A program made the translations under genes and the position numbers. A stretch of 64,000 nucleotides of DNA, from IMG/VR virus record IMGVR_UViG_3300020048_000015, positions 96,001 to 160,000 of that record. One strand, written 5' to 3'. This DNA is from a virus. Below, one piece after another: positions 3,102-58,727 of this stretch (its first letter is position 1; each line of letters begins with the position of its first letter). Under the pieces are notes generated by a model. The model made no database searches. It worked only from the letters and a program-made list of their open reading frames with translations, and was not told where the DNA came from.

Positions 3102-3350
3102 ATGAAATACTTAAAATTATTTGAAAACTTTAATCAATTTGAAATTGATGATATTCATAAAGAATACGAAGATTATATTATACTTGAAAAAAATATTCCA
3201 ACTAATTCAGAATTATGGAGTGCTTGTAAATCTTGGGCTAAATCTAAATACGATGTTTGGCCTTCCGCTTATGCATGTGGCGCAGCAGCAAAAAGATATA
3301 AAAGCAAAGGTGGAAAATGGAAAAAGAAAAAGAAAAAAAAATCTAAATAA
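3102..3350 (+). CDS. Small basic protein with MKYLKLFENF leader (DUF5872-like YDVWPSAYA motif)
   Basis: Leader; KNIPTNSELW...AKSKYDVWPSAYA...YKSKGGKW; poly-Lys tail. Confidence 0.7.
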   Translation: MKYLKLFENFNQFEIDDIHKEYEDYIILEKNIPTNSELWSACKSWAKSKYDVWPSAYACGAAAKRYKSKGGKWKKKKKKKSK

Positions 3351-3352
3351 TT

Positions 3353-3640
3353 ATGGAACATATACTTTTTTTTGAAGAATTTATAGCAGAATCTAATAAA
3401 GGCGGTTTAGATAAATGGTTTAAAGAAAAATGGGTTGATATATCCAAAACTAATCCAGATGGTTCACACCCACCATGTGGGAGAAGTGATGCAAGCAAAG
3501 GTGGATACCCAAAATGTAGAAAAGTAAAAGTAGCAAGTAAAATGTCAGAAAAAGAAAAAAAGGCTTCAGTTCAAAGAAAAAGAAAAGCTGAAAAGGAAGG
3601 ATCAAAAGGCACTGATAGAAGTCCAAATTATTCAAAATAA
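3353..3640 (+). CDS. Small basic protein with MEHILFFEEFIAES leader (GGLDKWFKEKWVDI family)
   Basis: Leader closely resembles the T4 CTS MKTYQEFIAE; GLDKWFKEKWVDI, PPCGR and YPKCR motifs. Confidence 0.7.
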   Translation: MEHILFFEEFIAESNKGGLDKWFKEKWVDISKTNPDGSHPPCGRSDASKGGYPKCRKVKVASKMSEKEKKASVQRKRKAEKEGSKGTDRSPNYSK

Positions 3641-3678
3641 AATTAAAAAAGACCAATTTATATTGGTCTTTTTTAATT
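3641..3678. terminator. Intrinsic terminator
   Basis: aattaaaaaagaccaat / attggtcttttttaatt. Confidence 0.8.
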
Positions 3679-3734
3679 ATAAATAGAAGAGTTTTAATTT
3701 TTAATATATAATACAAAATGTATAGACTATTTAA

Positions 3735-5918
3735 ATGAAAGTATCAAAATTCATAAAACCACACAAAGATATACTATTAGAATATATTTATGATGATGGC
3801 AATAACATAAGCGATTCCTATAAAATATTACAAAACCTTAGAGATAACACTTTTTCTTATGTTGCAGGTGATTCAAGTTCCACTGGAAACACTTTAACTA
3901 ATCAACTTTTTTTATTAGGTGGTGTTAGTAATAACTATGGATTAGTAAACACTACAAACTATTCATTTTTACAACTAAAAGACTATTCTTCTGGCTTCCC
4001 AGTAAGACATGATACTATAAAAGTATATCTACCTATAAATTGGACATTTGGTGAATATTTAGGATTCTATATTAAAGTTTATACATATGACTATAATAAT
4101 AAATATACCTATGCTTTATCTACATTCTTCTTTGATTCAACAAATTTAAATCAAAGTTATTTATTAAACTATAACACACCTGCTTTATTATTCCAAGAAA
4201 AACTATGGGGTAAGAATATTACAATCAATGTACCATCAGTTTATTCAGTTGCTAAACAAAGACAAAATGATGCACCTAAACTAAATTCACTTAATTACAA
4301 TTTGACAAATGGATTGGGTTTAAGTTTAACATCACCAATATTTATAGATTTTCATTTTATAACACAAAGAAAAACTATAAATAATATAACAACATATTTC
4401 CTAACTGCTAAGACACCAATAAGTCTTCCACAAACACCAGATTTTGAAAATATAGGAACACAAATTATTCATTCTACAAATGGTGATTATTTTGAAATAT
4501 ATGGTGTTTTTAATGGTGATATAAATCAATTTGATAATTTTATAAATGATTCAATACAATTAGGAAAAAGATATTATGTAACTTATAATATAACACTATA
4601 TGAACAAAATATAAGAGGTAAATCATTTATTATAACTGTAACAGAAAACTTTAATGAAAAAATAGATTATAGACCTATTATAAAATACTCAACAACAACT
4701 GCAATAATAGATGTTGAAATGTATATAATTGATGCTGTTGATAACACTTCTATTTATAGAAGAGCTTCTTATGGTATGTTACAAGATGAAGTCGCTAAAT
4801 ATAGTTTAAATCTTACTAAGATAAATCTAGCTAATGCAAGTAAACCAAAAATCTATAATATAAAATCACCAGAAGGCGCTGGTATATTTGGAAATTCAGG
4901 TAATACTGCTATGGGAAAATCACAAATAATATTAGAACCAATTAAAATAAATTATACAGTTTTATCTGATAGATTTAATGTTGTAGCAAAAAGCGAAAAT
5001 GTAACAATCGGTAGCCAAAAATTCTATGGTATTGGTAAATTACAATTGTTATTACAACCATTTGATAATATAATACAATTGAAAATAGCACAAGACTTTG
5101 CTAATTCAGATAACACAACGACCCCAACATACTTGGATATGTCTAATATGGGCGAAATAAAATTAGTTATAAAAAACCAACAACTTATGTTTGAAACAGG
5201 TCTTTACTTAGCTTCAAACCAAGTTGAATTAACAATTGGTATGACAGTATTCAAAATACCAGCAAGTAGAATGAATGATATTAGAAAAATATATGATTCT
5301 GGTCTAAATGTTTTCTATGTTACTGCTAAAACTGATACAGGAACAGTTGTTGTTTATTCAGGATTATATATTATTTATGACTCCAAAGATAATGTTAATA
5401 ATTTAAGAAATATTGTTCAAGCTTCCAATGTAAACAATAATACGCAACCATCAGTAATAATTGATCCATCTACACAAAAAGGAACAGCTATTGTAACAAG
5501 AAGTGTTGGAGAATTTACACCACCAACACCAACAATAAAAAAATTGAAATTAACTTCCTTCAAAAGTATGCCATCATCAACAATAATAAGTAAAGTAACT
5601 TATACTATCGGAACCGATTCTTCTTTAAGTATAGATGGTTATAAATATACTTCTAATGACATTAAAATAGTTTTAGGATTACCATCATCACCAACTAACT
5701 TATCTTTCAATACAGACGCTTTGTACTCAAATGGTAAGTATTTGGATAAATTAGTTGATATAAACAAAAAGTTATATTCTAAACTTATTACTACTAATGA
5801 CAAAAAAGAAATTTCTAATTTAACACAACAAAATTTTAAGGCAACAGCAGAAGAACAAGCTAAATCTAGTGGTAAATTAGGAATTATAGACAAAATTACT
5901 GGTAAATTAAGACCCTAA
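3735..5918 (+). CDS. Large beta-rich protein, probable virion structural protein
   Basis: 727 aa, N/T/S/Y-rich; TAATATATA at 3702-3710; upstream of a tail-tube-fold gene. Confidence 0.55.
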   Translation: MKVSKFIKPHKDILLEYIYDDGNNISDSYKILQNLRDNTFSYVAGDSSSTGNTLTNQLFLLGGVSNNYGLVNTTNYSFLQLKDYSSGFPVRHDTIKVYLPINWTFGEYLGFYIKVYTYDYNNKYTYALSTFFFDSTNLNQSYLLNYNTPALLFQEKLWGKNITINVPSVYSVAKQRQNDAPKLNSLNYNLTNGLGLSLTSPIFIDFHFITQRKTINNITTYFLTAKTPISLPQTPDFENIGTQIIHSTNGDYFEIYGVFNGDINQFDNFINDSIQLGKRYYVTYNITLYEQNIRGKSFIITVTENFNEKIDYRPIIKYSTTTAIIDVEMYIIDAVDNTSIYRRASYGMLQDEVAKYSLNLTKINLANASKPKIYNIKSPEGAGIFGNSGNTAMGKSQIILEPIKINYTVLSDRFNVVAKSENVTIGSQKFYGIGKLQLLLQPFDNIIQLKIAQDFANSDNTTTPTYLDMSNMGEIKLVIKNQQLMFETGLYLASNQVELTIGMTVFKIPASRMNDIRKIYDSGLNVFYVTAKTDTGTVVVYSGLYIIYDSKDNVNNLRNIVQASNVNNNTQPSVIIDPSTQKGTAIVTRSVGEFTPPTPTIKKLKLTSFKSMPSSTIISKVTYTIGTDSSLSIDGYKYTSNDIKIVLGLPSSPTNLSFNTDALYSNGKYLDKLVDINKKLYSKLITTNDKKEISNLTQQNFKATAEEQAKSSGKLGIIDKITGKLRP

Positions 5919-5990
5919 ATCAAATAAAAATTAGAAAAGCAATTAAATAACTACAGAAATAAAACTGTAGGATAAAAATAAAATAAAGAA

Positions 5991-6590
5991 ATGCGTTTAT
6001 CAAGCCAGTCAAGTTCGTTTATATTTTCATTACCCAGTGATTTTTTACCACAAGAAATAATCAATACATATAAACCAATTTTAGAAAAAAATTGGATTCA
6101 ATACGAAAATGTAATTGATTACTTAAATTCTACGATAAAATCGGTTAACTTCCCTGGATTAAGTGTTGCTACACCAGAACAAAGATTAATAAGAGGTAAA
6201 GTAAGAGCTTATAAACCTGCTACAAATGTTCAGGATATATTAACAAGCCATGAAATATCTGTAACTTTTAGATCAGTTGATTCTGATTTAAATTATTGGC
6301 TGACTTATGATATATTCAGCAAACATTATTTAGATGTTATAAATCTATATATAAACCCATTCACCATAACATCAATTGATATATGGCGAGATGCTATTTA
6401 TACTATAAAATTTATGGAAATAATTGCTGTTGGTTTAAGTGAAAATACATTTGATTATTCCCAACAAAAGACAAATTCAAAAGAATTTAATATAACATTT
6501 AAATTTAATTTTACTGATATTGAATTCTTATTAAATAAATCAAAAGTTCTTGAACTTGGAACTGTACCAACAATAATTCAAAAAATATAA
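5991..6590 (+). CDS. T4 gp3/gp19-like tail tube-fold protein (tail completion)
   Basis: SVNFPGLSV, ISVTFRSVDSDLNY, IKFMEIIAVGLSENTFDYS and FNITFKF match the gp3-family pattern. Confidence 0.55.
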   Translation: MRLSSQSSSFIFSLPSDFLPQEIINTYKPILEKNWIQYENVIDYLNSTIKSVNFPGLSVATPEQRLIRGKVRAYKPATNVQDILTSHEISVTFRSVDSDLNYWLTYDIFSKHYLDVINLYINPFTITSIDIWRDAIYTIKFMEIIAVGLSENTFDYSQQKTNSKEFNITFKFNFTDIEFLLNKSKVLELGTVPTIIQKI

Positions 6591-6596
6591 TTAATG

Positions 6597-6977
6597 ATGA
6601 AATACATAAAACTATTTGAAAATTTTTATGATGATACTTCTTGGACTAAAGAAATAGATGGAAAAGAAGAAACCATAACCATACACGATATACAAGAATA
6701 TCTTAAAAATGATGATGTTGTTAATATAAAAGTTGATGATATTAAACATATGTGCATCCACAAAAATAAAAAGGATAAAAAAACAATTGAACGTTCACAA
6801 AAAGCAGACTTAAATTATCCAATAATAATATCAAAAGGAACAGATGGTAAATTTAAAATGATTTTAGATGGACATCATAGATTAAAAAAGGCTATTGATG
6901 ATAGTGTAGAATTTATAAAAGCAAAAATTATAGATCTAAGAAATACACCAGATATTTACAAAAATATGTTTGAATAA
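6597..6977 (+). CDS. ParB/Srx-like domain protein with MKYIKLFENF leader
   Basis: DLNYPIII and MILDGHHRLKKA motifs. Confidence 0.7.
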   Translation: MKYIKLFENFYDDTSWTKEIDGKEETITIHDIQEYLKNDDVVNIKVDDIKHMCIHKNKKDKKTIERSQKADLNYPIIISKGTDGKFKMILDGHHRLKKAIDDSVEFIKAKIIDLRNTPDIYKNMFE

Positions 6978-7012
6978 ATTAATATATAGAATATAAAAAA
7001 AAAAAATGAATT

Positions 7013-7369
7013 ATGAAACACATTAAATTATTTGAAAATTTTGATGAAAAAGATGGTAAAAATTGGAAAACTGCATTTGATGCATATCAAGGTATGTATC
7101 TTAATATTACAGACGAAATTAAACAAAAAATTAAAAAAGAACTTGGATTAGATGATGATAATATCAAGTTTGGATATAACGAAATGCAAGAAGATAGAAG
7201 TATGTGGTTTGCTTCTATTCTAATTAATTTAGATGCATTATCTGATGATAAGAAATCAAATTTTAAAGATATAGTTAGAAATATCACCAACCCAAAAATT
7301 CCAAATAATGCACCCATAACAAAAAAATCCGGAATTATAAATAAAATTAAAGGTTTTTTTAGCAAATAG
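7013..7369 (+). CDS. Hypothetical protein with MKHIKLFENF leader
   Basis: Leader plus TAATATATA at 6980-6988. Confidence 0.7.
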   Translation: MKHIKLFENFDEKDGKNWKTAFDAYQGMYLNITDEIKQKIKKELGLDDDNIKFGYNEMQEDRSMWFASILINLDALSDDKKSNFKDIVRNITNPKIPNNAPITKKSGIINKIKGFFSK

Positions 7370-7370
7370 T

Positions 7371-7420
7371 AATAAAAAAAAATGTTGATAATATTTAAAT
7401 ATTATCAACATTTTTTTATT
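7371..7420. terminator. Bidirectional terminator between convergent genes
   Basis: aaaaaatgttgataat / attatcaacatttttt inverted repeat. Confidence 0.8.
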
Positions 7421-7592
7421 GTTCACCAAATAATTGTTCTTCTAACCAATCAAACCATTCTACTTCCAACATATCCCAATCAACATTATCTGTTAGTAAC
7501 TTTTTTGCTTCTCGTTGTCTATCAGTTATTAGTTTAGCCATTTCCCATAGTTTTTGATTTGATAATGGAATTGATATTCTTTCTTTAGACAT
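7416..7592 (-). CDS. 58-aa hypothetical protein (not in ORF track), acidic Trp-rich C-terminus
   Basis: Translated by hand: MSKERISIPLSNQKLWEMAKLITDRQREAKKLLTDNVDWDMLEVEWFDWLEEQLFGEQ*; start overlaps the upstream stop. Confidence 0.65.
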   Translation of the reverse strand: MSKERISIPLSNQKLWEMAKLITDRQREAKKLLTDNVDWDMLEVEWFDWLEEQLFGEQ

Positions 7593-7722
7593 TTTTTATA
7601 TTTTTTATCTTATCTAAGATATTTTTTACCCTAGTTCTTTTATCTTTATACCCAAATGATTTCAATATTTCTAAATTAATTTGTTTTGCTAATTCATCTG
7701 CTAACATCTTTACTACATCCAT
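7585..7722 (-). CDS. 45-aa protein resembling the gp23 spine-helix segment (not in ORF track)
   Basis: MDVVKMLADELAKQINLEILKSFGYKDKRTRVKNILDKIKNIKNV*; compare gp23 ELSGILATEIMLEINREV (recalled from memory). Confidence 0.55.
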   Translation of the reverse strand: MDVVKMLADELAKQINLEILKSFGYKDKRTRVKNILDKIKNIKNV

Positions 7723-7724
7723 AA

Positions 7725-8417
7725 TTATCTTATAATTTTAAAACAACAATATTTATTTTCCCAACCACCAACTTGTTCAAATGCATATTTATTATTTATC
7801 TTATCTATTAAAAGTGTTAATCCCGTTTCATTTTCTTTACCCGAATTACCAACAATAATTTTATCAGAATCAATAGTATCATCAAATATTACTTTAATCC
7901 CATAATTATTATTAGTATCTACATATTCTTGACAATCTCTACCAACTAAAACAAAATTAGCAGATCCTATTCTACTTTTAACAGCTATCATATTAGAAGC
8001 CATCATTATTTTTGACATAAATCTTCTAACATTATATTCATAATTTTCCGCTCTAGTTTTGTTTTCATCAAATTCAATAGTATAATTTAAACTTGATTCA
8101 ATCTGTATATTAGTATTCAAGAAATTAAAAACTTCATAGTATATTTGATCATATTGTGCAATGTCTTTAATAGTTAAAGACTTTGAATTTATAACCATTT
8201 CAATTGTTCCAAAATCGTCTTCTTTAATTTCTACATAACCAGATTTATATTCATCTATTTCATCATCAACTATTGCACCAATCGCCAAATCCCTATTTTT
8301 TTGTTTAATTTTGGAAATATCTTTTATTTGTGGTTCTAAATAATATATTGTGTTTGTATTTAATAAATCACATTCTTTATAAAAACACACTTCTTTTAAT
8401 TTTTCATTATTGTTCAT
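7725..8417 (-). CDS. Reduced gp23/gp24-like major-capsid-fold paralog
   Basis: FMSKIMMASNMIAVKSRIGSANFVLV...IKVIFDD...KIIVGNSGKENETGL parallels gp23 LLFQIDKEAVEIARQTGRGEGNFII...YRVYIDQY...FTVGYKGPNEMDAGI. Confidence 0.6.
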   Translation of the reverse strand: MNNNEKLKEVCFYKECDLLNTNTIYYLEPQIKDISKIKQKNRDLAIGAIVDDEIDEYKSGYVEIKEDDFGTIEMVINSKSLTIKDIAQYDQIYYEVFNFLNTNIQIESSLNYTIEFDENKTRAENYEYNVRRFMSKIMMASNMIAVKSRIGSANFVLVGRDCQEYVDTNNNYGIKVIFDDTIDSDKIIVGNSGKENETGLTLLIDKINNKYAFEQVGGWENKYCCFKIIR

Positions 8418-8574
8418 TTATCTTTCTTAAAATATTTTTTATAATTTTAATCCTTTTATAAAGATACAAATTATCACTACCAACTAAAATATAATTGGAA
8501 CTTCCTTTCCTACTTTTATTTGCTAAACTATTAGCCGCAGATAATAGTTTAGTTATTAAATCTCGTTGATACAT
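8407..8574 (-). CDS. 55-aa gp23-fragment-like protein (not in ORF track)
   Basis: [55 protein letters not shown]; same motif as in the adjacent 230-aa paralog. Confidence 0.65.
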   Translation of the reverse strand: MYQRDLITKLLSAANSLANKSRKGSSNYILVGSDNLYLYKRIKIIKNILRKINEQ

Positions 8575-8735
8575 CTATCTAAAATTTCTTTAATAAAAAT
8601 TTTTCTTTTTTCTTTTGTATATTCCCTTATCACATCATCAAAACTACCGTGCATCATACTAAGATCAGAAATCATTTCACTTTTCCAAGAAGTTTTCAAT
8701 TGTCTTGTTGACACATTTACTATTTTACATTCCAT
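8556..8735 (-). CDS. 59-aa gp23-fragment-like protein (not in ORF track)
   Basis: [59 protein letters not shown]; compare gp23 KQVIEAKSRQLKAAYSIELAQDLRAVHG. Confidence 0.7.
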
Positions 8736-9842: not shown

Positions 9843-11465
9843 TTATAAATTATTGGTTTGTTTAAATGTAATATCTTTTTCTATACTATATGGATGCCAA
9901 GAGCATTTATTAAAAAAATCTCGCCAATATATATATGTCTTGTAGTCATTAGGAGTACCCCAACATATATAGTTTATAACTTCAAACACTTTAACATTTA
10001 AACCACTTTTAATATTTTGATTTAACACATCATCAACATAGAATTCACCATTAGTTCTAATATTTGATTCATAATTCTTTTTAAGACCATCAATAAAATA
10101 CTTGGCTTTTCTAAAATACATTGTCCCAATTATAGCATGTGTTTTTAAGGGATCATCATATATAAACTTTTTACAAGAAACGTGTTTTATTAAATTATTT
10201 TCATCAACTTCTAACCAAGCATACATATTTGGATTCAATTTACTTGTTTGATTATTTCTAAATGACCATACTATAACATCATTATTTTCATCATTAACAA
10301 GTTCCAAATATTCATTTGTATCATAATATACACCATTATCACAAGCAGAAATAAGAATAGGTTTTTCTAAATCTAAATTAGCATTATTTATACCAATTTC
10401 ACAAGTACATGCTTGACCTTCAGTAGTTTTATTTATTTTAATAATATTACAATTTGGATAACTATCATTAAGTTTTTCACTTAAATTAAAATTATCTATG
10501 TGTTCTTCTAAGCATATAAATATATTATTTTCAGATTGTGGTAAACAATTTACTGCTTGTATTACCATAGGTAGACCATTTACATCAATTAATGGTTTTG
10601 GAATATCATATCCACATTCAGTGAATCTACTTCCTTTACCAGCCATTGGTAAAACTAATGTAACATCAGGATTATTTTTAATTATTGGTTGCTTTTTAAT
10701 TATATTTGAAAAATAATTAGACCAACCTTTATATACTTCTAAATCATATGGTGTTCCCCATTGTAACATATTTTCTATTTCAAAAATACTAACATTTAAT
10801 CCATCTTTAACTAATAAATTATAAACAAGACTAACATAAAATTCACCATTTAAATTTATATTTAAATCTATTAGTTTCTGGAAATACTTTTTAACAAGTG
10901 ATCCACTTTTGAAATAATATGTTCCATTGGAAGCATATTCACTCATCTTATCATCAGTGAATGGTTCTTTCTCCTTAATTTCAATAAGTCTTTTATTCTC
11001 TTCCTTACAGAAAGCATAATTATCACTACCCAACATATGAGGGTGAAATCCGGTATAACAAGGTATAGCACCATCTGAATTTTTACTTCTAATTTCATCT
11101 AAAAACTTATTGAAATCCCAATAAGTACCATAATCACAATAACTAACTATAACTTCTGATTCATCATCAATATTATCTATAATCTGATTAATAGCATCAA
11201 CTGGTCCTTTTCTATTATCATTAGAAACTTCAAATATTTTACAATTTGGTGAAATTGATATTAAAATTTCTTTCATATTTGTTTCCTTTAGATGTTTTTC
11301 ATTACATATAAATGTAATATTATCAACACCAGGAAAAAGGTTAATGACATGTTTAATTATTGGAAAACCATCAACTTCAATTAATGGCTTAGGAACTGTA
11401 TAACCAGCTTCTATAAATCTTTTACCAATGCCTGACATTGGTATAATAAGTTGTATATTATTCAT
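9843..11465 (-). CDS. Tandem (two-domain) sugar nucleotidyltransferase-like protein
   Basis: Two copies of IPMxGxGxRF...PKPLIxVxG, each domain with NGEFYV and WGTP motifs. Confidence 0.85.
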   Translation of the reverse strand: MNNIQLIIPMSGIGKRFIEAGYTVPKPLIEVDGFPIIKHVINLFPGVDNITFICNEKHLKETNMKEILISISPNCKIFEVSNDNRKGPVDAINQIIDNIDDESEVIVSYCDYGTYWDFNKFLDEIRSKNSDGAIPCYTGFHPHMLGSDNYAFCKEENKRLIEIKEKEPFTDDKMSEYASNGTYYFKSGSLVKKYFQKLIDLNINLNGEFYVSLVYNLLVKDGLNVSIFEIENMLQWGTPYDLEVYKGWSNYFSNIIKKQPIIKNNPDVTLVLPMAGKGSRFTECGYDIPKPLIDVNGLPMVIQAVNCLPQSENNIFICLEEHIDNFNLSEKLNDSYPNCNIIKINKTTEGQACTCEIGINNANLDLEKPILISACDNGVYYDTNEYLELVNDENNDVIVWSFRNNQTSKLNPNMYAWLEVDENNLIKHVSCKKFIYDDPLKTHAIIGTMYFRKAKYFIDGLKKNYESNIRTNGEFYVDDVLNQNIKSGLNVKVFEVINYICWGTPNDYKTYIYWRDFFNKCSWHPYSIEKDITFKQTNNL

Positions 11466-11934: not shown

Positions 11935-12230
11935 ATTTCTTCTATTCTAAGTGTTTTATCATCAATAAATAAATCATAATATGGCTTTGTAACATTTAGT
12001 TCATGGTGTTTAGCCCCCCATTCAATTAATTGTTGTTTAGTAAGTTCATACCAATTTATTTGTGATCTGCTACCTCGAGCAGTCCAATAAACAATAGTAT
12101 TACCATCATCATAGAGTTTATTAATCTTTTCTATGTTTTCTTTTATTGGTTTAGCATTGGAATAATTTCTAGGTTCCGGTGTAATACAGATTGTTTCATC
12201 TATATCAACATAAATAACTTTCATTTTCAT
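11931..12230 (-). CDS. Small HAD-superfamily phosphatase (capsule-cluster type)
   Basis: YVDIDETIC, YWTARG and KPYYDLFIDDK. Confidence 0.85.
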   Translation of the reverse strand: MKMKVIYVDIDETICITPEPRNYSNAKPIKENIEKINKLYDDGNTIVYWTARGSRSQINWYELTKQQLIEWGAKHHELNVTKPYYDLFIDDKTLRIEEI

Positions 12231-12880: not shown

Positions 12881-12881
12881 A

Positions 12882-29370: not shown

Positions 29371-30009
29371 ATGAAATACTTAAAATTATTTGAAAACTTT
29401 AATAATGTTCCATTTAAAGGGTTTTCTGATATTGTCAAATTTGATAATGTTAAAAAAAGAAATATAAATATAAATAATGAAAATCTAATAACAATAGATA
29501 ATGGAAAAACTGTTTTATTAAAAAAAGACACTACCTTATTAGCTAAAGTAATATATGATAAAATTGATGATAAGATTAGTATCAGTATGATAGAATCATA
29601 TGCAAGAGGATATGGGAAAATATTAATGCTTCATTTAATAGAAGAATATGGATATGATAACATCATCACAAAAGTATTAACTAAAGCTGGTCAAAAAATG
29701 ATGGATGATTTAAATGATTTATATAATTTTAAAAAACTATCAAACTTTTTAAATAGAAAAGATTTATTTAAAAGTATAAATGATCAATTAATAATAACTG
29801 TATTAGATAACATCTGTGAATATGGTATAAAAAACACTTTAAAAGCTTTCAAAAATGACATTATAGACAATAAAATAAATAATATAGATATAGAAACATT
29901 AGTTGACATATCATCTTGGATAGACGATTCAGTTCAAAATAATCATAGTATAGATGATAATATTCCAGATTATATCTATGATGAAATAGAAAAATTAAAA
30001 AACCGATAG
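29371..30009 (+). CDS. Hypothetical protein with MKYLKLFENF leader, possible GNAT-like core
   Basis: Leader; ISMIESYARGYGKILM...LTKAG; TAATATATA at 29358-29366. Confidence 0.6.
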   Translation: MKYLKLFENFNNVPFKGFSDIVKFDNVKKRNININNENLITIDNGKTVLLKKDTTLLAKVIYDKIDDKISISMIESYARGYGKILMLHLIEEYGYDNIITKVLTKAGQKMMDDLNDLYNFKKLSNFLNRKDLFKSINDQLIITVLDNICEYGIKNTLKAFKNDIIDNKINNIDIETLVDISSWIDDSVQNNHSIDDNIPDYIYDEIEKLKNR

Positions 30010-30031: not shown

Positions 30032-31738
30032 TTATATGTAAGTATATCCTTCTATTTTTTCAGGTATTTTCATTATCTTAAGTTCCATCAAAGCATCACC
30101 TAAAAGATTCTTAACTATTTTACAATCATCTCTTAAAAAATTATATTTTTTCTGATATTTTAAATAATTATTAACATTTTTAAAAAGTTTATATACATTA
30201 TATATAGGATTTCCCATACCATAAAAATCACAACCACCCTTCATACGATTTACTATATTTGGGATACCATCTAAACTGGTTAATTGATTATTATTACAAC
30301 CAAACCTACCACTAACTGTTTTAGGACAACCTTCCAAACTTATTAATTTATTATCTGAACAATCAAAAAAACCAGAAAGTGTATTAGGACAACCTTCTAA
30401 AGAAGTTATTTCATTGAAAGAACAAACAAAATAACCACCTACTGTATTAGGACAACCATCAAGTGTGGTTAATTTATTATAATTACAATTAAAACCACCA
30501 TTAACTGTATTAGGACAACCTTCTAATGAGGTTAATTGATTATTATTACAATCAAAATAACCACCAACTTCTTTAGGACTACCTTCTAAGCTATTTATAT
30601 AATTATAACTACAGTCAAAATCACCACCAACATAATTAGGACTACCTTCTAAACCGGTTAATTGATTAGATCCACATTTAAAATTCCCCGAAACCCTATT
30701 AAATTTCAATGGAATTTTAGTTAATCCTTTATAATAAAAATTAACATCACCATTAACATCAATAGATTCATCCGAATTTATAGTATAATTATTAATATTT
30801 AATAGTTTTAATATTTCTTCAACTGCTAAACTATCAAAATTGTAATATGATTCTTCGTTATCATTATAAACATTCTTATGAACATCGTATTTTAAACTTT
30901 TTAAATCTTTATTAAAATGTTGATCTAATATATTCTGAACAGTTTTCTTAAATTCAGGTCTTTTAGTTCCATACATATTTTTACTTGGTAATAATATAAC
31001 ATCTTTATTTTCACCAACAAATGGTTTAATATTTAAAACTGCCAATGGCGATTCAATATTTCTATCAGTTAATTTCACTAAATAAGATATTAATGATCCT
31101 TCTTTTACTTCTTCTATAAGATATTTAATATTTACACCATCTTCTTTATAATCATTTATTTTATCTTTTAAATCTTTAATTTTATTTTGATCATCAGAAA
31201 ATTTAATTTTTTCCAATTCATCCATTAGCTTAGTTAATCTATTGGATTTATCAGTTCCAATGGTCATACAATTAGTCCAATCTCTATCTGTATCAGAACC
31301 AGCAATATCATATGGATGTCTTGAAATAACTACTAATAATTCATCTTTATCAGTTGACACCAATGTCTTTCTTTTTTCATCAGAAACAAATTGTTTAGAC
31401 AATTCTTCATTTTTAAATTTGTTTAATAATTTACCAATTGTAGATGTATTTTTAGCACTTCTAAATTTAGCTACACCTTTTACATAATCTACAATTTCAC
31501 AGTCATTTTCAGCCAAAAATTTATCTATTAATTCATGGGTTGTTGAAATATATCCAGTGACTTCTTCTTTAATCAACGGAATATATATTCTATAATAGTT
31601 TCTATCATTGCTGTATAAATCACCTAATTCTTTAAAAATATCAGCATATCTTTCCTTATCAAAAGCATCTACATATTTCCTAAATTGGGATGGCTTTAAT
31701 GCTTCATTAAAACCAATATAACTTTTTATATATTTCAT
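30032..31738 (-). CDS. Leader-bearing (MKYIKSYIGFNE) protein with C-terminal 7 x 21-aa LRR
   Basis: VGGxFxCxxNxLTSLEGCP repeats; C-cap ending GYTYI shared with two paralogs. Confidence 0.8.
   Translation of the reverse strand: MKYIKSYIGFNEALKPSQFRKYVDAFDKERYADIFKELGDLYSNDRNYYRIYIPLIKEEVTGYISTTHELIDKFLAENDCEIVDYVKGVAKFRSAKNTSTIGKLLNKFKNEELSKQFVSDEKRKTLVSTDKDELLVVISRHPYDIAGSDTDRDWTNCMTIGTDKSNRLTKLMDELEKIKFSDDQNKIKDLKDKINDYKEDGVNIKYLIEEVKEGSLISYLVKLTDRNIESPLAVLNIKPFVGENKDVILLPSKNMYGTKRPEFKKTVQNILDQHFNKDLKSLKYDVHKNVYNDNEESYYNFDSLAVEEILKLLNINNYTINSDESIDVNGDVNFYYKGLTKIPLKFNRVSGNFKCGSNQLTGLEGSPNYVGGDFDCSYNYINSLEGSPKEVGGYFDCNNNQLTSLEGCPNTVNGGFNCNYNKLTTLDGCPNTVGGYFVCSFNEITSLEGCPNTLSGFFDCSDNKLISLEGCPKTVSGRFGCNNNQLTSLDGIPNIVNRMKGGCDFYGMGNPIYNVYKLFKNVNNYLKYQKKYNFLRDDCKIVKNLLGDALMELKIMKIPEKIEGYTYI
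30260..30700 (-). repeat. Seven 63-bp LRR-coding repeats
   Basis: 441 bp = 7 x 63; recurring ggacaacc(t/a)tc and ccaccaac words. Confidence 0.8.
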
Positions 31739-35416: not shown

Positions 35417-35686
35417 CTAGATTGAATCTATTAGTTTAGCTAATCTTCTGTCCATATTCGTCACCGCTTTTTCTGAATGAGTAAACAATTTCATTCTTAA
35501 CTTAAAAGCTTCGTATATCTCTGCGTCAGGATGATGATTGTTATCGTCTGCTATTTTAGCCACCTTTAATAGGAACTCAGCAAGTTCAGTCTGAGTACTA
35601 AAAATAATTTCTTTGGTCAAACCATCCACTGATTCGTTCCATTTTGATTCGTCTGATATGAATCCTTTAAAAGTTCTTATATTCAT
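35417..35686 (-). CDS. phhB: Pterin-4-alpha-carbinolamine dehydratase
   Basis: KVAKIADDNNHHPD, LFTHS and VTNMDRRLAKLID; TAATATATA at 35692-35700; ATG at 35686. Confidence 0.85.
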   Translation of the reverse strand: MNIRTFKGFISDESKWNESVDGLTKEIIFSTQTELAEFLLKVAKIADDNNHHPDAEIYEAFKLRMKLFTHSEKAVTNMDRRLAKLIDSI

Positions 35687-35729
35687 AAGAGTATATATTA
35701 AAGTTTTCAAATAGTTTTATGTATTTCAT
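35667..35729 (-). pseudogene. Orphan leader micro-ORF MKYIKLFENFNIYSYEYKNF*
   Basis: Translated by hand; perfect leader, out of frame with phhB, which it overlaps. Confidence 0.6.
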
Positions 35730-43214: not shown

Positions 43215-43253
43215 ATTAAAAAAGCCTATCAAATTTGATAGGCTTTTTTAATT
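43214..43253. terminator. Perfect 40-bp palindrome / bidirectional terminator
   Basis: aattaaaaaagcctatcaaa|tttgataggcttttttaatt. Confidence 0.8.
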
Positions 43254-43833
43254 ATAAATAAGTATATCCTTTTATTTCTTTTGGCAATTTTATATTTTGA
43301 TTATAATATTCATTAAAATCCATTAATGCTTCTTCTAAAAGGTGTTTAACTATTTTACCATCTTTTCTTAGAAAATTATATGTTTCTTGGTATTCTAAAT
43401 ATATATTAACATCTTCATCAAATAATTTCACTATTCTTTTTATTGGATTATCATCAAAATAAAAATATTTACCTACTTCTATAGGAAAACCTTCTAAACT
43501 TATTAAATTATTACGATTACAGTTAAAAGAATTAACTATATTAGGACCACCTATTAAATTTGTTAATTTATTATCATAACAATAAAAATGTCTTCCGACT
43601 TCTTTAGGACATCCTTCTAAACTAGTTAATTCATTCCAAGAACAATCAAACCAACCTGAAACTTTATTGAATTTTATTGGAAGTTTAGTTAAAAATTTAT
43701 TACCTAAATTAACATTCCCATCTACGTCAATAGATCCATCTGGATTTATTGTGTAGTTTTTTATTCCATATTTTTTACAAATCTTATCAATTTCTGTTTG
43801 ATCAAAGTTTTCAAATAGTTTTAAGTATTTCAT
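43252..43833 (-). CDS. MKYLKLFENF-leader LRR protein (3 repeats)
   Basis: NYTINPDGSIDV N-cap; LEGCP repeats; C-cap ending GYTYL; TAATATATA at 43839-43847. Confidence 0.8.
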   Translation of the reverse strand: MKYLKLFENFDQTEIDKICKKYGIKNYTINPDGSIDVDGNVNLGNKFLTKLPIKFNKVSGWFDCSWNELTSLEGCPKEVGRHFYCYDNKLTNLIGGPNIVNSFNCNRNNLISLEGFPIEVGKYFYFDDNPIKRIVKLFDEDVNIYLEYQETYNFLRKDGKIVKHLLEEALMDFNEYYNQNIKLPKEIKGYTYL

Positions 43834-46710: not shown

Positions 46711-47355
46711 TTAAATATAAGTATATCCTTCTATTTCTTTTGGTAATTCAACCTGTTTATTATAAAAGTCATTATAGTCCTTTAAAGCTTCTATTAATAA
46801 GTGTTTAACAATTTTACAATCCTTTCTTAGAAAATTATATGTTTCTTGATATTCTAAATAATTCTCAACACCATTAAATAAAGATATTATTGGACCTATT
46901 GGATTTTGGGCAAACCCAAGACCACCACCAACTTCTTTAGGACAACCATCTAAACTGGTTAAGTTATTCCTTGCACAATTAAAATTCCTACCTATGTAAT
47001 TAGCATTACCTTCAAGACTTATTAGGTTATTAATGTAACAATTAAAATCTTCGCCAACATAATTTGGACAACCAATTAAATTAGTTAATTGATTATTATT
47101 ACAAAGAAAATCTTCACCAACATAATTTGGACAACCTTCTAATGTGGTTAATTTATTAACAGAACAATCAAATTCCCCAGAAACTCTATTAAATTTAAGT
47201 GGTAACTTGGTTAATTCTTCGTTACATATACCAACATCACCATCTACATCAATAGATCCATCTGGATTTATAGTATAGTTTTCTATACCATATTCTTCAC
47301 AAATATCATCAATTTCAGATGAATCAAAATTTTCAAATAGTTTTATGTATTTCAT
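46711..47355 (-). CDS. MKYIKLFENF-leader LRR protein (4 repeats)
   Basis: Paralog of 43252..43833 with the same N- and C-caps. Confidence 0.8.
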   Translation of the reverse strand: MKYIKLFENFDSSEIDDICEEYGIENYTINPDGSIDVDGDVGICNEELTKLPLKFNRVSGEFDCSVNKLTTLEGCPNYVGEDFLCNNNQLTNLIGCPNYVGEDFNCYINNLISLEGNANYIGRNFNCARNNLTSLDGCPKEVGGGLGFAQNPIGPIISLFNGVENYLEYQETYNFLRKDCKIVKHLLIEALKDYNDFYNKQVELPKEIEGYTYI

Positions 47356-47770: not shown

Positions 47771-47787
47771 TTTTAATATATAATAGT

Positions 47788-48183
47788 ATGAAATACTTAA
47801 AACTTTTTGAAAACTTTGATGATAATAAAGGATATGAACTTATATCTTCTAGTGTGTATTATGATATTGAAAATATTAAATCAATTAATATAAATGATAA
47901 AATATTAGATATTATAAAAAATAAAAAGACAGAAAAAGTAAAATCACTAACTAAGGTTCGAATTGTGACTCCTAAAAATGATTTAATTACACAAGATGAA
48001 GAAAAAATAACACCTGCTACTTATTTTGGAGTCACAATTCGAACCTTTCATCACGAAATAGCTATTGATCAAGTAGAAGATTATTATTATTTTGTTGGTA
48101 TTGATGATGAAATATTTTATAAATGTGATCAAGATGAAGGATTATTAGAACTCTTAAAAGAATTAGGTATAATATATGAATAA
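47788..48183 (+). CDS. Hypothetical protein with MKYLKLFENF leader
   Basis: Leader plus TAATATATA at 47774-47782. Confidence 0.7.
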   Translation: MKYLKLFENFDDNKGYELISSSVYYDIENIKSININDKILDIIKNKKTEKVKSLTKVRIVTPKNDLITQDEEKITPATYFGVTIRTFHHEIAIDQVEDYYYFVGIDDEIFYKCDQDEGLLELLKELGIIYE

Positions 48184-48628: not shown

Positions 48629-48663
48629 AATATTAATATATAAATAAAATATAACATACTATT

Positions 48664-49458
48664 ATGAAAATCAAAAACTTTGGACAGTTTAAAAAAATAT
48701 ATGAAAATTCAGAAGAAATTATAGATGATGCCGAATTTTCAACTGCACCAACAATAAAACCAGGAACACCTACTAAACCTGCAACACCAACTAAACCATT
48801 AACACCGGGTATAGAACAACCATCTATATCACCTGGACCAAAAGCACAACAACCTGTTAATATTGATCAAATGTTAGAAGAATTAGCAATGGAATTAGGT
48901 GCTAAAAAAACAAGTAATAAAATTAATTATAATGGAAAATTAATTGAATTCTATTCAGAACCAATGTCATTTGCAATTAATGGTAAAATAAATGTTATGG
49001 TTAATGGAACTAAAACACAACTTAAAACTGTTGAAGAAGTAATTAATTATTTAATGGATAGTCAAGCACAAACACAAACATTAACTGAATCTAAAAAAAA
49101 AACAAAAATGGTAAAAGAATCTAATAAATTCAAAGGATATTATATAATTGGTTATGGTCTTAGTGGTGGATTCGGTGGAATCCGTGATTATGAAGTAATT
49201 GAAGCATCAAGTCAAGAAGAAGCTGATGATTATGCATATGAAAGATCTTGTGAATATTATGAAAATTATGTTGGTATGTACGGATTGCGTGATGTTGGTC
49301 AAATAATGGAAGAAGATGATATTGAAGATGAAGAAGAAGCCGAAGAATACTATAGAGAAGAAATGGAATCTTGGTTAGAATATGTGGCTTTTCCATACAC
49401 AAAAGAAAAAGCAAATGAATTAGAACCATTTGATCATTTTAAATTATCAGAAAAATAA
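48664..49458 (+). CDS. Leader-bearing (MKIKNFGQFKKIYEN) protein with Pro/Thr-rich linker and acidic C-domain
   Basis: TAATATATA at 48634-48642; KPGTPTKPATPTKP; internal LTE/KES sites. Confidence 0.7.
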   Translation: MKIKNFGQFKKIYENSEEIIDDAEFSTAPTIKPGTPTKPATPTKPLTPGIEQPSISPGPKAQQPVNIDQMLEELAMELGAKKTSNKINYNGKLIEFYSEPMSFAINGKINVMVNGTKTQLKTVEEVINYLMDSQAQTQTLTESKKKTKMVKESNKFKGYYIIGYGLSGGFGGIRDYEVIEASSQEEADDYAYERSCEYYENYVGMYGLRDVGQIMEEDDIEDEEEAEEYYREEMESWLEYVAFPYTKEKANELEPFDHFKLSEK

Positions 49459-50028
49459 ATTATTTTTGGGAACTTTTATATACCAAAATATAGTCAGGAA
49501 CAAACACAAACAATGATAAAAGAATCTAATCAATTTGAAGGATATTAATATATAAACAATAAAACAAAAAAATATGGAAAAGATTTTAAGATTTAATGAA
49601 AATTTAAAGTGTGTTACTAGCTTTTCAACACATAACAACGTTCAATATAAACAAGGTGATATTATTAATATGTCTTCTTTTAATGCCCTGTTAGATTGGG
49701 AAAAGAATTTTTTTAAATCAGAATCAGAATATGGTGAAATAATACACAAACGTGTACATAAATCGAAAATATCTGATGGTAATGATAATGATGGAAAACA
49801 TTTAACAGGAACTAATCCAGGTGATGGTTTTGGTACTGGGATACCTGGTGGTATTGACATAGATTTTGATACTATTTTATAAAGAAAATAAAGAACTATT
49901 AAAAAGATGCTTCCCAACACTTTGCTTTCAGAATGGTGAATATTGCATAAAATTTATTAGAACCATTTGATCATTTTAAATTATCAGAAAAATAAACTAT
50001 TTTTGGGAACTTTTATATACCAAAATAT
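49419..50028. repeat. 73-bp direct repeat (49419-49491 and 49956-50028, one mismatch)
   Basis: attagaaccatttgatcattttaaattatcagaaaaataaa(t/c)tatttttgggaacttttatataccaaaatat. Confidence 0.9.
49574..49882 (+). CDS. Hypothetical protein with MEKILRFNEN leader, inside the direct repeat
   Basis: TAATATATA at 49546-49554. Confidence 0.65.
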   Translation: MEKILRFNENLKCVTSFSTHNNVQYKQGDIINMSSFNALLDWEKNFFKSESEYGEIIHKRVHKSKISDGNDNDGKHLTGTNPGDGFGTGIPGGIDIDFDTIL

Positions 50029-50309: not shown

Positions 50310-51737
50310 ATGATAAAAAACATCCACGAAAAACTAATGGAATCAGTTCAACAAATGTTGATTGATACCAAAGTTAATTTGCCCTATTATGGAAACTTCA
50401 ATCTATTTATTTCTTTCTCAGAAAGAAAAGATATAGGAACTTGTGCTGTTAATATGACAGCAAAAGGTATGAATTTTTACTATAATTCAGAATTTCTTAA
50501 CAGACTTTCTCAAAAAGAAGTAAATTTCATAGCACTACATGAAGACTTCCACTTGCTATGGAATCACCCTAAACGTACAATTACTGGTCAATATGACCAT
50601 AAACTTTCCAACGTTGCACAAGATATGATTATCAATCATATCATTTGGGAAGATATTCCTGCAACCTACGTAGAAATACCAAAAGATGAAAATGGTAAGA
50701 ATATGACCTTGTTTGTTCCTAAAGAATATCCAGGAAAACTTATCTTTGAAGAACTTTATGAATGGTTACGTGACCAAAAAGAAAAACGTGAAAAAGAAAA
50801 AGAATGTCAATCTTGTGGTGGTTCCGGTAAAAAACAAAAAGGTTCTGGTAAAGATAAACAAGAAAATGACCAAAATGGTGGACAAAATGGTGATCAAAAT
50901 GGCGGCAGTGGACAAAATCAAGATGGTGAGGAGGATTGTGAAGATTGTAATGGTTCTGGTAAACAGTCTTCCCAAAAGAAATATGGCCCATATGGTAAAA
51001 ATCCAAAAAATGAAAGTGAAACCATTGATACTTGGTCATTAGATGATATTCTTGATAACCTTGATAAAAATAATGGACAATATATGGATGTTCATATGGG
51101 TGACGAAGTTCCAGAAGAAATGCGTGAATCTATGGTTAAAGATGCTATGGAAAGATTACAAGCTCGTGGTTTGGAAAGCGGTAAAGTAGAACAAACACTT
51201 AATAAACTTCGTAAGAAAAGAAAGAACTATTTGTCCTATATCAAAAGAACCATAACCAATCTTATTATGGGAACAAATAAAAATAAAACTATCGTAAAAC
51301 CAAATAGAAGACAAGTTGAAGGTCTTAAAGGTAATAGAAAAACTAAAACCGCAATCAACGTAATTTTAGATACCAGTGGTTCAATGGGTAATACATTTGA
51401 AAAGGTGCTTTCTTACATATATAGAGGCGACATCTCTGTTAATATGATCCAAGGTGACACCGAAGTAAAATGGGTTGATAAGTTTATGGATAAGAAGAAG
51501 ATTGAAAGAATGAAGGTGCATGGGATGGGCGGTACAATTTTGCAACCTTCTGTACTTTATATTGAACAACACTTCAACAAATTCAACACAGTAATTTTAA
51601 CAGATGGTTATTGTGACAATCTAGATTTGAGTAGACTATCTGGAAAGGTATTGATTATATCAATTGGTGTAGAAGTCCCTATTTCTAAATCTAATGGTAA
51701 ATTAAAACAAATCGTAGTTGACCTTAATAATGATTAA
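50310..51737 (+). CDS. DUF2201-type metallopeptidase-like plus VWA domain protein
   Basis: HEDFH (HExxH), NVAQDMIIN, ILDTSGSMG (MIDAS), GGTILQP and ILTDGY. Confidence 0.85.
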   Translation: MIKNIHEKLMESVQQMLIDTKVNLPYYGNFNLFISFSERKDIGTCAVNMTAKGMNFYYNSEFLNRLSQKEVNFIALHEDFHLLWNHPKRTITGQYDHKLSNVAQDMIINHIIWEDIPATYVEIPKDENGKNMTLFVPKEYPGKLIFEELYEWLRDQKEKREKEKECQSCGGSGKKQKGSGKDKQENDQNGGQNGDQNGGSGQNQDGEEDCEDCNGSGKQSSQKKYGPYGKNPKNESETIDTWSLDDILDNLDKNNGQYMDVHMGDEVPEEMRESMVKDAMERLQARGLESGKVEQTLNKLRKKRKNYLSYIKRTITNLIMGTNKNKTIVKPNRRQVEGLKGNRKTKTAINVILDTSGSMGNTFEKVLSYIYRGDISVNMIQGDTEVKWVDKFMDKKKIERMKVHGMGGTILQPSVLYIEQHFNKFNTVILTDGYCDNLDLSRLSGKVLIISIGVEVPISKSNGKLKQIVVDLNND

Positions 51738-56928: not shown

Positions 56929-56939
56929 AAAATAAATAT

Positions 56940-57230
56940 ATGAAATTATCATTAGAAATTTTAAGAAGTTATGGCTTTAAAGAAAGAACGTATAAACCTG
57001 ATTGGGATGACACTTGTGTAGAATTTACTTTACCAAATGGTATTATGTTAAATACTATGACCCAATGTAATAATCAACCAACTGAAAGTGACTGTTTAGA
57101 AGGGATGGATGGGTTTATTTATATTGATTCAAAGGAAGATTTAGATGAATTAGTAAATATGTCTTATGAAGATGCTTTAAATAAAATTGCATCTGAAAAT
57201 AAAAATTTTGATATTAACAATTATTTTTAG
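56940..57230 (+). CDS. Hypothetical protein
   Basis: 96-aa ORF. Confidence 0.6.
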   Translation: MKLSLEILRSYGFKERTYKPDWDDTCVEFTLPNGIMLNTMTQCNNQPTESDCLEGMDGFIYIDSKEDLDELVNMSYEDALNKIASENKNFDINNYF

Positions 57231-57250
57231 TAATATATAAAATAAAAAAA

Positions 57251-57292
57251 ATGCTTAAAAATTTTAATCAATTTAATGAAAGTATGAAATAA
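57251..57292 (+). pseudogene. Leader-only micro-ORF MLKNFNQFNESMK*
   Basis: Lies between TAATATATA (57231-57239) and a terminator (57291-57337). Confidence 0.55.
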
Positions 57293-57337
57293 TAAAAAAT
57301 GTTCGGATATTTTTAAAATATCCGAACATTTTTTATT
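57291..57337. terminator. Bidirectional terminator
   Basis: aataaaaaatgttcggatattt / aaatatccgaacattttttatt. Confidence 0.8.
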
Positions 57338-58727
57338 TTTTAGATTTCATAAATGTTTCTGCAAGTGTAGCCCTTTTTCTTGTCAAAGGATCAGAATCTT
57401 TTTTCAATTTTTTAATATCTATCATTGATAATTTTTCATCTTTATCTTTAATTAAACCTTTTTTCTTAGCTTTTTTTTTCAAAGCACCTTTTTTTAATTT
57501 AAGATCATTCATCCATTTTTTAGCTTCTGATATTTCTTGCGGAACTTCTTTACATAATTGTTCTAATTCATAATCTTCCTTAGCTTCCAATTCCAGTTCA
57601 TTAAAACCTACATTGCATAAATGATTAATCATTTCTTCTCTATCCATAAAAGATTCATTCTTTTTGAATTTATCTTTTAAATCAATAGCTTGTTTAACAT
57701 TGTTTTTCATTTGGTTATGATAATCATCTGTTGGTGCATCCATACTATTAGGATATAATTTTTGTGTCATATTATTCCATTTTGTAAATGGTAATATTGA
57801 ACTTTCCATACCCTTTGCTTGAACTGATGATTCATATTTAACTTCTTCATCACCTACAAATCTTGTTCTAACACCACCTTTTCTTGAAGCATTTGAAGTA
57901 TCATATAAATTAAACTTCAAATTGGTCATCAATGACTTCTCCTTGAAGAATTTGTGCATGTGTTCAACATTCTTTATATCATCATCAGAAAATCCAACAG
58001 AAACAGTTTTAGCACCAATTTGATTACCATATTCATTACAAGTATCTACAAATTTATTTAAAGCCATTTCTTTTGCTTTTTCTGGATTTGATGCAGATGC
58101 TGAACCAAACTCTTCTGCAAATGATTCAGATGAAACGCCATAATATCCACAATGGTCTAAATATACTTTTATCAATGGCATTTTAGTAACTTGTCCCTTA
58201 ATAACCCTTGCATATTGATCAGTTTCATTATGTGAAAAATAATAAGCATTTTTAAGACAATGACTATACATTTCAAATTGTTGTTGCTCTGTAAGGAAAT
58301 TATCTATTATATACTCAATAGATTTACGATATGTAGAGGGTTCATTTCCTCTTGCTGTTATAAGAGCAAATATAGCACCTTCTGATAGACATTGAATAAA
58401 TGAATCCCAAGATGGCCCAAATAATCCGTTTCTTATAGCGATTTTCATATCTTCTATAAATGCCATGTTTCCCCTTGGTCCATTATCTCTAAATTCCGAA
58501 AAAGATTCATTACCTGGTAGTAACTTATAATTATCTTTATCATTTCTAACTTTCGCAAATTCAGTGGTTGATACATCAATTGGTACCCAATTATCACCAA
58601 CCTTTTTTAACATGTGTATAACAGTTGGCATATGAAATAAATTATCATCTATGTCAAACGCATAATAATGTAATTCAATCTCATGTAAGGATTCCTTTAT
58701 ATAATTAGAAAAATTTACTAACTTCAT
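57333..58727 (-). CDS. Leader-bearing (MKLVNFSNYIKES) HAD-like phosphatase with basic C-terminal module
   Basis: FDIDDN (motif I), ITARG (motif II) and GFSDDD.KN (motif IV); tail KKGAL...RKRATLAETF. Confidence 0.7.
   Translation of the reverse strand: MKLVNFSNYIKESLHEIELHYYAFDIDDNLFHMPTVIHMLKKVGDNWVPIDVSTTEFAKVRNDKDNYKLLPGNESFSEFRDNGPRGNMAFIEDMKIAIRNGLFGPSWDSFIQCLSEGAIFALITARGNEPSTYRKSIEYIIDNFLTEQQQFEMYSHCLKNAYYFSHNETDQYARVIKGQVTKMPLIKVYLDHCGYYGVSSESFAEEFGSASASNPEKAKEMALNKFVDTCNEYGNQIGAKTVSVGFSDDDIKNVEHMHKFFKEKSLMTNLKFNLYDTSNASRKGGVRTRFVGDEEVKYESSVQAKGMESSILPFTKWNNMTQKLYPNSMDAPTDDYHNQMKNNVKQAIDLKDKFKKNESFMDREEMINHLCNVGFNELELEAKEDYELEQLCKEVPQEISEAKKWMNDLKLKKGALKKKAKKKGLIKDKDEKLSMIDIKKLKKDSDPLTRKRATLAETFMKSKK

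Follow-up and report, generated by a model that had tools for sequence, protein, structure and literature searches.

What does a virus gain from beginning many otherwise dissimilar proteins with the same ten residues? The question is raised by a 64,000-nucleotide stretch of viral DNA with a G+C content of ~25% (hereafter the window), which comprises bases 96001-160000 of the 182,728-bp IMG/VR record IMGVR_UViG_3300020048_000015. A 30-nt leader, ATGAAATAYWTAAAAYTWTTTGAAAAYTTT, begins the open reading frames (ORFs) at 3102, 6597, 7013, 29371 and 47788 on the plus strand and at 43833 and 47355 on the minus strand. A previous inspection of the letters alone (the sequence-only reading) had named these seven near-identical sites, all of which we found, and had proposed that the encoded peptide works like the capsid-targeting sequence (CTS) of phage T4 internal proteins (IPs), loading its carriers into the phage head. 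The peptide, MKY[LI]KLFENF, is a real, virus-specific and modular tag that is conserved at the peptide level. That it is a detachable N-terminal address, a functional counterpart of the T4 CTS by which proteins would be loaded and then trimmed, is the best-supported reading, though one that the sequence comparisons below leave evenly poised between right and wrong; the targeting part is better supported than the cleavage part.

The leader is far too frequent and too precisely placed to be fortuitous. Its DNA matched the window eight times with at most two mismatches, against 0.00 expected from 100 shuffles. Counted genome-wide, as the sequence-only reading had suggested, it occurs 25 times in the whole 183-kb record (reversed control, 0), and a six-frame search for K[LI]FE[ND][FY] gave 23 strict peptide copies, every one of them at residues 5-10 after a methionine. 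A looser N-terminal pattern added 15 ORFs, one of them spurious, and was found at 6.5% of the remaining N-termini compared with 0.4% of internal methionine positions. Strict and loose variants together bring the tagged total to about 38 of the record's 261 ORFs (~14%).

Beyond the window, the degenerate pattern MK[YH]xKLFENF is present in at least 114 IMG/VR stretches, many of which lie on contigs of 100-680 kb. Across 596 Gb of cellular genomes the same pattern matched only twice, each time on a 2-3-kb contig from a metagenome-assembled genome of Bacteroidota, and a generic host translation context was rejected on this ground. A tblastn search of the leader N-terminus against 50,697 phage records returned weak matches in two uncultured huge phages only, and nothing about this tag came up when the full-text literature was searched for the motif strings. 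Judged by its DNA polymerase and gp5-like baseplate hub, the record has its nearest relatives in two uncultured huge phages, LR756502 (642 kb) and LR745206 (635 kb), with Tenacibaculum phage PTm1 and the Lak phages as remoter ones. Genomes of 634-735 kb have been assigned to the Mahaphage clade, for which Bacteroidetes are the predicted hosts (Al-Shayeb et al., PMC7162821). By these comparisons the record is part of the Mahaphage lineage, an uncultured giant phage of Bacteroidota. It encodes a T4 gp32-like single-stranded DNA-binding protein, a Clp-type AAA+ ATPase and a baseplate block.

Within the window the tag is carried by fewer genes than the ‘about 14 unrelated payloads’ of the sequence-only reading, a figure that proved an overcount: seven strict copies and two or three credible variants stand on about seven unrelated bodies. 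Among the variants it had listed, 3353 is credible and 31738 is a real sub-variant, while 48664 and 49574 are loose and lie behind a promoter-like motif, TTAATATATA. The starts at 46694 and 58727 are weak and unconvincing, and that at 35686 is not a leader variant, since residues 12-89 of its Pterin_4a domain correspond to profile positions 14-91 and so leave no N-terminal extension. As for the payloads, pterin-4a-carbinolamine dehydratase (PCD, untagged), a weakly ParB-like body, a leucine-rich-repeat (LRR)-like fold and the two halves of a DUF5872 domain were borne out, and the HAD, PD-(D/E)XK and GNAT labels were unconfirmed in the window by Pfam or PHROGs. The genes concerned are as follows.

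3102..3350, plus strand: strict leader MKYLKLFENF on an 82-residue protein with the N-terminal half of DUF5872 and a very basic tail; TTAATATATA at 3088-3097, 14 nt upstream.
3353..3640, plus strand: variant leader MEHILFFEEFIAES, 95 residues, with the C-terminal half of DUF5872; phrog_23735 at 1.8e-14.
6594..6977, plus strand: strict leader, 126-127 residues, weakly ParB-like body; leader ATG at 6597, with an additional in-frame ATG at 6594.
7013..7369, plus strand: strict leader MKHIKLFENF, 118 residues, ORFan body with no significant family match; TTAATATATA at 6979-6988.
29371..30009, plus strand: strict leader, 212 residues, ORFan body with no family match; TTAATATATA at 29328 and 29357.
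30032..31738, minus strand: sub-variant leader MKYIKSYIGFNEAL, 568 residues, body in the LRR-like cluster; TTAATATATA at 31770-31779.
35417..35686, minus strand: PCD, untagged; Pfam Pterin_4a at 8.3e-13.
35667..35729, minus strand: orphan exact leader in a 20-codon ORF (leader copy 35700-35729), overlapping a promoter motif and the PCD start.
43252..43833, minus strand: strict leader, 193 residues, LRR-like paralog; promoter motif at 43839-43848.
46711..47355, minus strand: strict leader, 214 residues, LRR-like paralog; promoter motifs at 47361-47370 and 47399-47408.
47788..48183, plus strand: strict leader, 131 residues, ORFan body with no family match; promoter motif at 47773-47782.
48664..49458, plus strand: loose variant MKIKNFGQFKK, a doubtful tag outside the looser leader pattern; promoter motif at 48633-48642.
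49574..49882, plus strand: loose variant MEKILRFNENL, a doubtful tag outside the looser leader pattern; promoter motif at 49545-49554.

The modularity of the tag is clearest when the bodies are compared after removal of the first 12 residues. Fourteen of the 23 strict leader genes of the record, including 43833 and 47355, then fall into one LRR-like paralog family of 28 members, and the remaining nine form nine separate clusters, giving ten in the record with the LRR family; 6597, 7013, 29371 and 47788 are mutually unrelated by BLASTP. The 69 tagged genes of LR756502 resolve into 62 BLASTP clusters. Among the IMG/VR matches listed, 92 distinct leader ORFs gave 58 clusters and hence at least 58 unrelated tagged proteins, in which only M1, K2, K5, F7, E8, N9 and F10 are invariant columns and only a handful of the cluster representatives have Pfam domains (AAA_28, SET, GNAT and DUF551 among them). 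Plain paralogy, in which the tag would be the conserved N-terminus of a single expanded family and the rest chance or decayed copies, can point to the 14 of 23 strict copies in the LRR-like family, and to the NQ[FS]EID sequence that gene 3102 and the record gene 90211 share with that family beyond the tag. We consider it very improbable: past the tag no similarity was detected in nine strict copies, in the 62 clusters of LR756502 or in the 58 among the IMG/VR matches listed, and the LRR-like family itself has members without the tag, eight of them in the alignment (11 members are classed as leaderless).

Those leaderless paralogs begin at the residue aligned to position 13 of the tagged ones. 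An alignment of the record genes 3423-6587 and 19961-20524 with the leader LRR genes distinguishes two architectures. In the first, an N-terminal leader goes with a long conserved C-terminal domain whose last residues are GYTYI; in the second there is no leader, and the protein closes with a short helix, NPKAEIxRLxRExKLNxLL. The AlphaFold2 model of 43252-43833 has a predicted local distance difference test score of 94.7 overall, with 47 for residues 1-10 and 93-99 for the remainder; its first helix starts at residue 12, and the fold shows repeated short strands. Modelled in this way, the tag is predicted to be unstructured and detachable. The top Foldseek matches of the model are LRR domains (SspH1, IpaH, YopM, VLR), although weak ones (E >=0.05, TM score ~0.4), and the bodies of 43833 and 47355 have no Pfam LRR match. 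The sub-variant gene at 31738 has two paralogs, one of which (record 170036-171478) lies within the baseplate/tail block.

A conserved start might be a property of the DNA rather than of the peptide, and the sequence upstream of the leader bears on this. The window has 21 copies of TTAATATATA where 4.5 would be expected, most of them 11-50 nt before a gene start, and the motif is associated with leader genes both in this record (odds ratio 7.6, p 3e-7) and in LR756502 (odds ratio 5.2, p 4e-13). It stands at six of the seven heads of leader-LRR arrays and at none of the eight leaderless LRR genes. The full motif is also found upstream of baseplate-block genes in this record, and its core, ATATATA (mostly AATATATA), stands in front of the genes for portal, capsid and protease-scaffold in LR756502 and in G001, a 276-kb contig that carries 20 copies of the same leader and whose LRR genes are 70-78% identical to those of the record at the DNA level. 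These associations suggest that TTAATATATA is a late promoter. The gene at 6594..6977, which comes after 5991-6590, is without a promoter motif of its own; its body matches phrog_17560 (5.5e-11) and, from residue ~29, the ParB-like phrog_33277 (5.5e-06).

It could be argued from this arrangement that a late promoter, a very short 5′ untranslated region and ten codons have been recombined as an expression cassette in front of new genes, the peptide itself being of little function. The leader DNA is indeed more alike than peptide identity and codon bias predict. Codon 3 is TAC in 15 of 19 leaders (79%) compared with 11% genome-wide (p 7e-12, though the counts are non-independent, the paralogs having a common ancestry), and in six of six of the non-LRR strict leaders with a tyrosine codon at this position; Asn9 is AAC in 13 of 22 (59%) compared with 14%. 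A like bias towards C is seen at codon 3 in LR756502. This preference for codons ending in C implies some constraint, or copying, at the DNA level and tells against a purely peptide-level address; it suggests that cassette copying or a start-proximal RNA constraint operates on top of peptide selection. The promoter motif, moreover, often ends 4-5 nt before the ATG, so that such transcripts may be nearly leaderless, and Bacteroidota make little use of Shine-Dalgarno pairing.

The orphan leader, which the sequence-only reading had missed, fits the cassette explanation as well. Lying at 35700-35729 on the minus strand, in a different frame from the ORF at 35686, it is joined to a promoter at a microhomology: its final codons (..TTT AAT) merge into TTAATATATA at 35692-35701, and TTTAAT is shared with the promoter of the PCD gene. 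It may be a recombination scar or junction, or else a small upstream ORF. Mobile promoter/start cassettes and recombination through conserved leaders are known from T4-type hyperplastic regions (the T-even IP loci and PeSL cassettes). The leader is similar in that conserved short gene-start DNA beside a promoter could mediate the swapping of bodies, and the orphan at 35729 resembles such a junction; it differs in being conserved at the peptide level across diverged genomes.

It is the peptide-level conservation that makes an inert cassette distinctly unlikely. In LR756502 the tag occurs in two registers, A and B, with the patterns MK[HY]LKxYK[IL]FES and MK[HY][LI]KxFExF, and the peptide pattern is kept while synonymous choice is free (Glu is GAA in 14 cases and GAG in 14, Lys5 is AAA or AAG, and Leu4 uses four codons). 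The orthologues of 3353 in other contigs begin with MEHLLEFAEFILEE and MVKIKKFEEFCYEI, retaining the hydrophobic pattern with different residues. Eight strict leader genes in translationally coupled arrays retain the tag with no promoter in front of them, the same short spacing is seen in late genes that have no leader, and the sequence is missing from host-type genomes.

If the peptide is what is selected, the T4 CTS is the closest parallel. In T4 this sequence, MKTYQEFIAE, is carried by IPII and IPIII, with a related one in IPI, and is removed by the gp21 prohead protease (Mullaney & Black 1996, via PMC9026906, PMC3012670); in the IPIII CTS residues 4 and 7 (Y4 and F7) matter for targeting, and residues 8 and 10 for processing (PMC9026906). 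Like the CTS, the leader is a tag of about 10 residues running from the start methionine, begins MK, contains an [LI]-x-E motif and is found on otherwise unrelated carriers, with coding DNA conserved enough for recombination. All 23 strict copies have F at position 7 and an aliphatic rather than aromatic residue, L or I, at position 4; in LR756502 position 4 is L, I or V and position 7 is Y or F. Sequence identity between the two tags is too low for homology to be called. They differ further in number, with 23-25 strict copies in 183 kb here (~38 with loose variants) and 69 in the complete 642-kb LR756502, compared with two exact CTS copies in the T4 genome. The glutamate lies at residue 8, or at 11 in a second register, with conserved N9 and F10 following it, and the tagged bodies are slightly acidic on average rather than basic. 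Packaging and cleavage are putative here.

Other large phages offer a second comparison. In phiKZ, 201phi2-1 and SPN3US, S80 proteases remove N-terminal propeptides from head and ejection proteins, cleaving after A/S/G-x-E (PMC10052503, PMC5694885). These too are large phages that place many proteins in the head, their protease cuts after glutamate, and a protease of the present lineage, described below, also scores against Peptidase_S80. Their propeptides are, however, mostly 20-254 residues long and family-specific, in contrast to the one shared 10-mer seen here, and in SPN3US ~80% of head proteins are uncut.

A role in head loading presupposes suitable head genes. A search of the whole record for a gp21 protease (PF03420) gave no match, and a Gp23 search of the record returned weak fragments only and no full capsid gene, both of which count against such a role. 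From the same two results the record appears to be a fragment without its head module; CheckV estimates its completeness at 84%, which is probably an overestimate in this lineage. With the head module off the contig, head genes were compared in relatives. In stretch L089 of G001 we find a T4-type portal at 3588-5300 (PF07230, 2e-59), a protease-scaffold fusion and, at 11133-12911, a Gp23-type capsid protein (4e-27), and LR756502 has the same layout of portal, protease-scaffold and capsid. The G001 protease (L089:8884-11040, 718 residues) scores 27.1 bits against PF03420 and 28.4 bits against Peptidase_S80 (PF20034), and its S77/S80 protease domain is followed by a 42-nt unit, repeated 10.9 times, that encodes EY[LI]AE[TNS][VL]DKNIAYS. 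In both G001 and LR756502 (L020/L022) the prohead protease continues into a scaffold made up of 11-13 near-perfect repeats, each of 14 residues and bearing Y-[LI]-A-E-[NST]. A protease, scaffold core and gp23-type shell were also found in LR745206, and a Gp23-type capsid gene in four of five large leader-bearing contigs tested. The lineage resembles T4 in having a T4-type portal, an S77-like protease, an [LI]-A-E-rich scaffold and a gp23-like capsid protein. G001 also has homing-endonuclease-like genes between portal and protease. In the window, weak Gp23 matches lie in small consecutive ORFs of the minus strand at 7416-8735 (7725-8417, E 1.4e-4; 8646-8732, ~1e-3), and LR756502 and LR745206 have additional weak Gp23-like ORFs distant from the true capsid gene.

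The sequence-only reading thus survives in part. Its T4-CTS-like tag on diverse proteins is N-terminal, predicted to be disordered, virus-restricted, tied to the promoter motif and in agreement with the CTS at positions 4 and 7; its count of payloads was inflated. The gp21 homologue that it expected is missing from its own record and has a gp21-like counterpart in the protease-scaffold fusions of G001 and LR756502.

These head proteins give some indication of where cleavage might occur. T4 gp21 cleaves after [LI]-x-E and the S80 proteases after A-x-E (PMC9026906, PMC10052503). In the capsid proteins of four relatives, I-N-E-N is invariant in an otherwise variable N-terminal region and may be the capsid maturation site. 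In this lineage the apparent site is [LI]-x-E, then N, S or T, then a hydrophobic residue, and L-F-E-N-F in the leader would fit it. Every strict copy has L6-F7-E8, and register A of LR756502 has [IL]-F-E. An N-terminal [FY][IL]AE was seen only once, in 3353, which is too rare for a statistical test.

Several further observations weigh against loading and trimming. [LI]-x-E is common by chance, occurring several times per protein, so that the site match is weak when taken alone; only ~10 of the 32 genes in register B of LR756502 have L or I at P3; and the putative cut of the leader involves residues 6-8, compared with 8-10 in T4, leaving the invariant N9 and F10 beyond it. Mimicry of the scaffold repeats was considered and rejected. 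A BLOSUM profile of 23 repeat units ranked the leader at the 99.6th percentile, with hundreds of internal sites scoring equally, and in LR756502 the scaffold-repeat profile showed no N-terminal enrichment; only the minimal [LI]-x-E-[NS] resemblance therefore remains. A 281-kb contig with a leader copy had no Gp23 match. In the phage collection the tag is confined to uncultured records. PTm1, the nearest relative in culture, which has the same type of head module, was tried as a proxy for virion proteomics and set aside, since the loose pattern occurs in two of its 322 ORFs, equal to background. In LR756502, finally, a few tagged proteins have a hydrophobic or lipoprotein-like segment past the tag.

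The last point raises the question of whether the tag is read elsewhere in the cell. The tag does not fit a Sec, Tat or lipoprotein signal peptide: it has no hydrophobic core, where these require an h-region of at least 10 residues after a basic n-region. Tagged proteins are also poor in transmembrane segments, which were predicted in one of 38 tagged ORFs of this record (that ORF being probably spurious) compared with 20 of 223 others, and in 5 of 109 tagged ORFs of LR756502 compared with 115 of 879. The tag might instead be an address or handle for another machine, such as a phage Hsp70, a ClpB/ClpC-like AAA+ unfoldase, a degradation pathway or an intracellular compartment. It is a disordered, basic-flanked hydrophobic stretch, and such stretches are typical of chaperone- and unfoldase-binding peptides. 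The phage has candidate readers: an Hsp70-like ORF at record 63092-65248, interrupted by an N run and identified from its N-terminal sequence only, and a 700-residue double AAA+ Clp-type ATPase on the plus strand of the window at 41112-43214 (AAA_2 4.8e-57; ClpB_D2-small 4.9e-18; AAA_lid_9; UVR motif). The weak evidence for a cleavage site and the membrane-bound appearance of some tagged proteins are in its favour too. Nothing, however, ties the Hsp70 or Clp ATPases to the tag, and such a reader would leave unexplained the link to the promoter motif of the head genes, the conserved glutamate followed by N or S as in the scaffold and capsid sites, and the match to T4 CTS positions 4 and 7. We regard another machine of this kind as unlikely.

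Returning to the counterpart of the T4 CTS, the following scheme can be envisaged. Tagged proteins would be made late in infection, together with the head proteins. The tag would bind the prohead core through a hydrophobic stripe formed by L/I4, F7 and F10, the core in this lineage being predicted to consist of the gp21-like protease fused to the scaffold of 14-residue repeats. Tagged proteins could then be enclosed as the gp23-like shell forms, the protease would probably trim the tag after Glu8 (L-F-E|N), and the proteins would leave with the DNA at the next infection. Core binding, head enclosure, cleavage and injection are steps that we infer. In its fullest form, as an address code by which the Mahaphage lineage pre-loads 7-14% of its gene products into the capsid for co-injection with the DNA, the proposal would have a cargo of over 60 families unrelated in sequence, exceeding that of T4 in diversity by an order of magnitude. 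Among the injected proteins would be diversified LRR binders, the two halves of a split basic protein, and enzymes of the SET, GNAT and kinase-like kinds. We put the likelihood of this broader claim somewhat short of even.

Were the tag a capsid address, a large share of the ORFans of huge phages would be pre-made effectors delivered at time zero, and a simple sequence rule would list candidate injected anti-defence and takeover proteins directly from metagenomes. Phage heads could also be loaded with foreign proteins through a second, independent tag, and the protease-scaffold fusion, with its 11-13 CTS-like repeats, is a concrete candidate for the binding partner. Should a chaperone or degradation machine turn out to be the reader, the tag would still be a virus-specific address, hitherto undescribed, that dozens of protein families carry.

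The split basic protein is encoded by the adjacent genes 3102 and 3353, each with a leader or leader-like start. Residues 33-80 of 3102 correspond to positions 1-47 of the Pfam DUF5872 profile (24.0 bits) and residues 14-81 of 3353 to positions 51-114 (21.6 bits); the two jointly cover the 116-position domain, each half scoring below the gathering cut-off of 27.5. Two nucleotides separate the stop of 3102 from the start of 3353, and the two genes are read in different frames. The viral contigs L083, L072 and L065 show the same split, both halves again having a leader-like start, making four phages in total. Gene 3102 ends in a lysine run encoded by an A-rich tract.

Two further features of the window lie outside the tagged genes. 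From 8725 to 29307 there are ~20 kb of co-oriented minus-strand genes with a strong negative GC skew, among them 9843-11465, which is 48% identical to a Synechococcus-phage sugar nucleotidyltransferase/kinase; together these genes probably form a glycan or nucleotide-sugar cluster. The DNA polymerase matches its relatives in two pieces, 43888-45813 and 50310-51737, both on the plus strand. The polymerase of PTm1 is annotated as intein-containing and split, and an HNH endonuclease gene lies near the polymerase pieces of the window.

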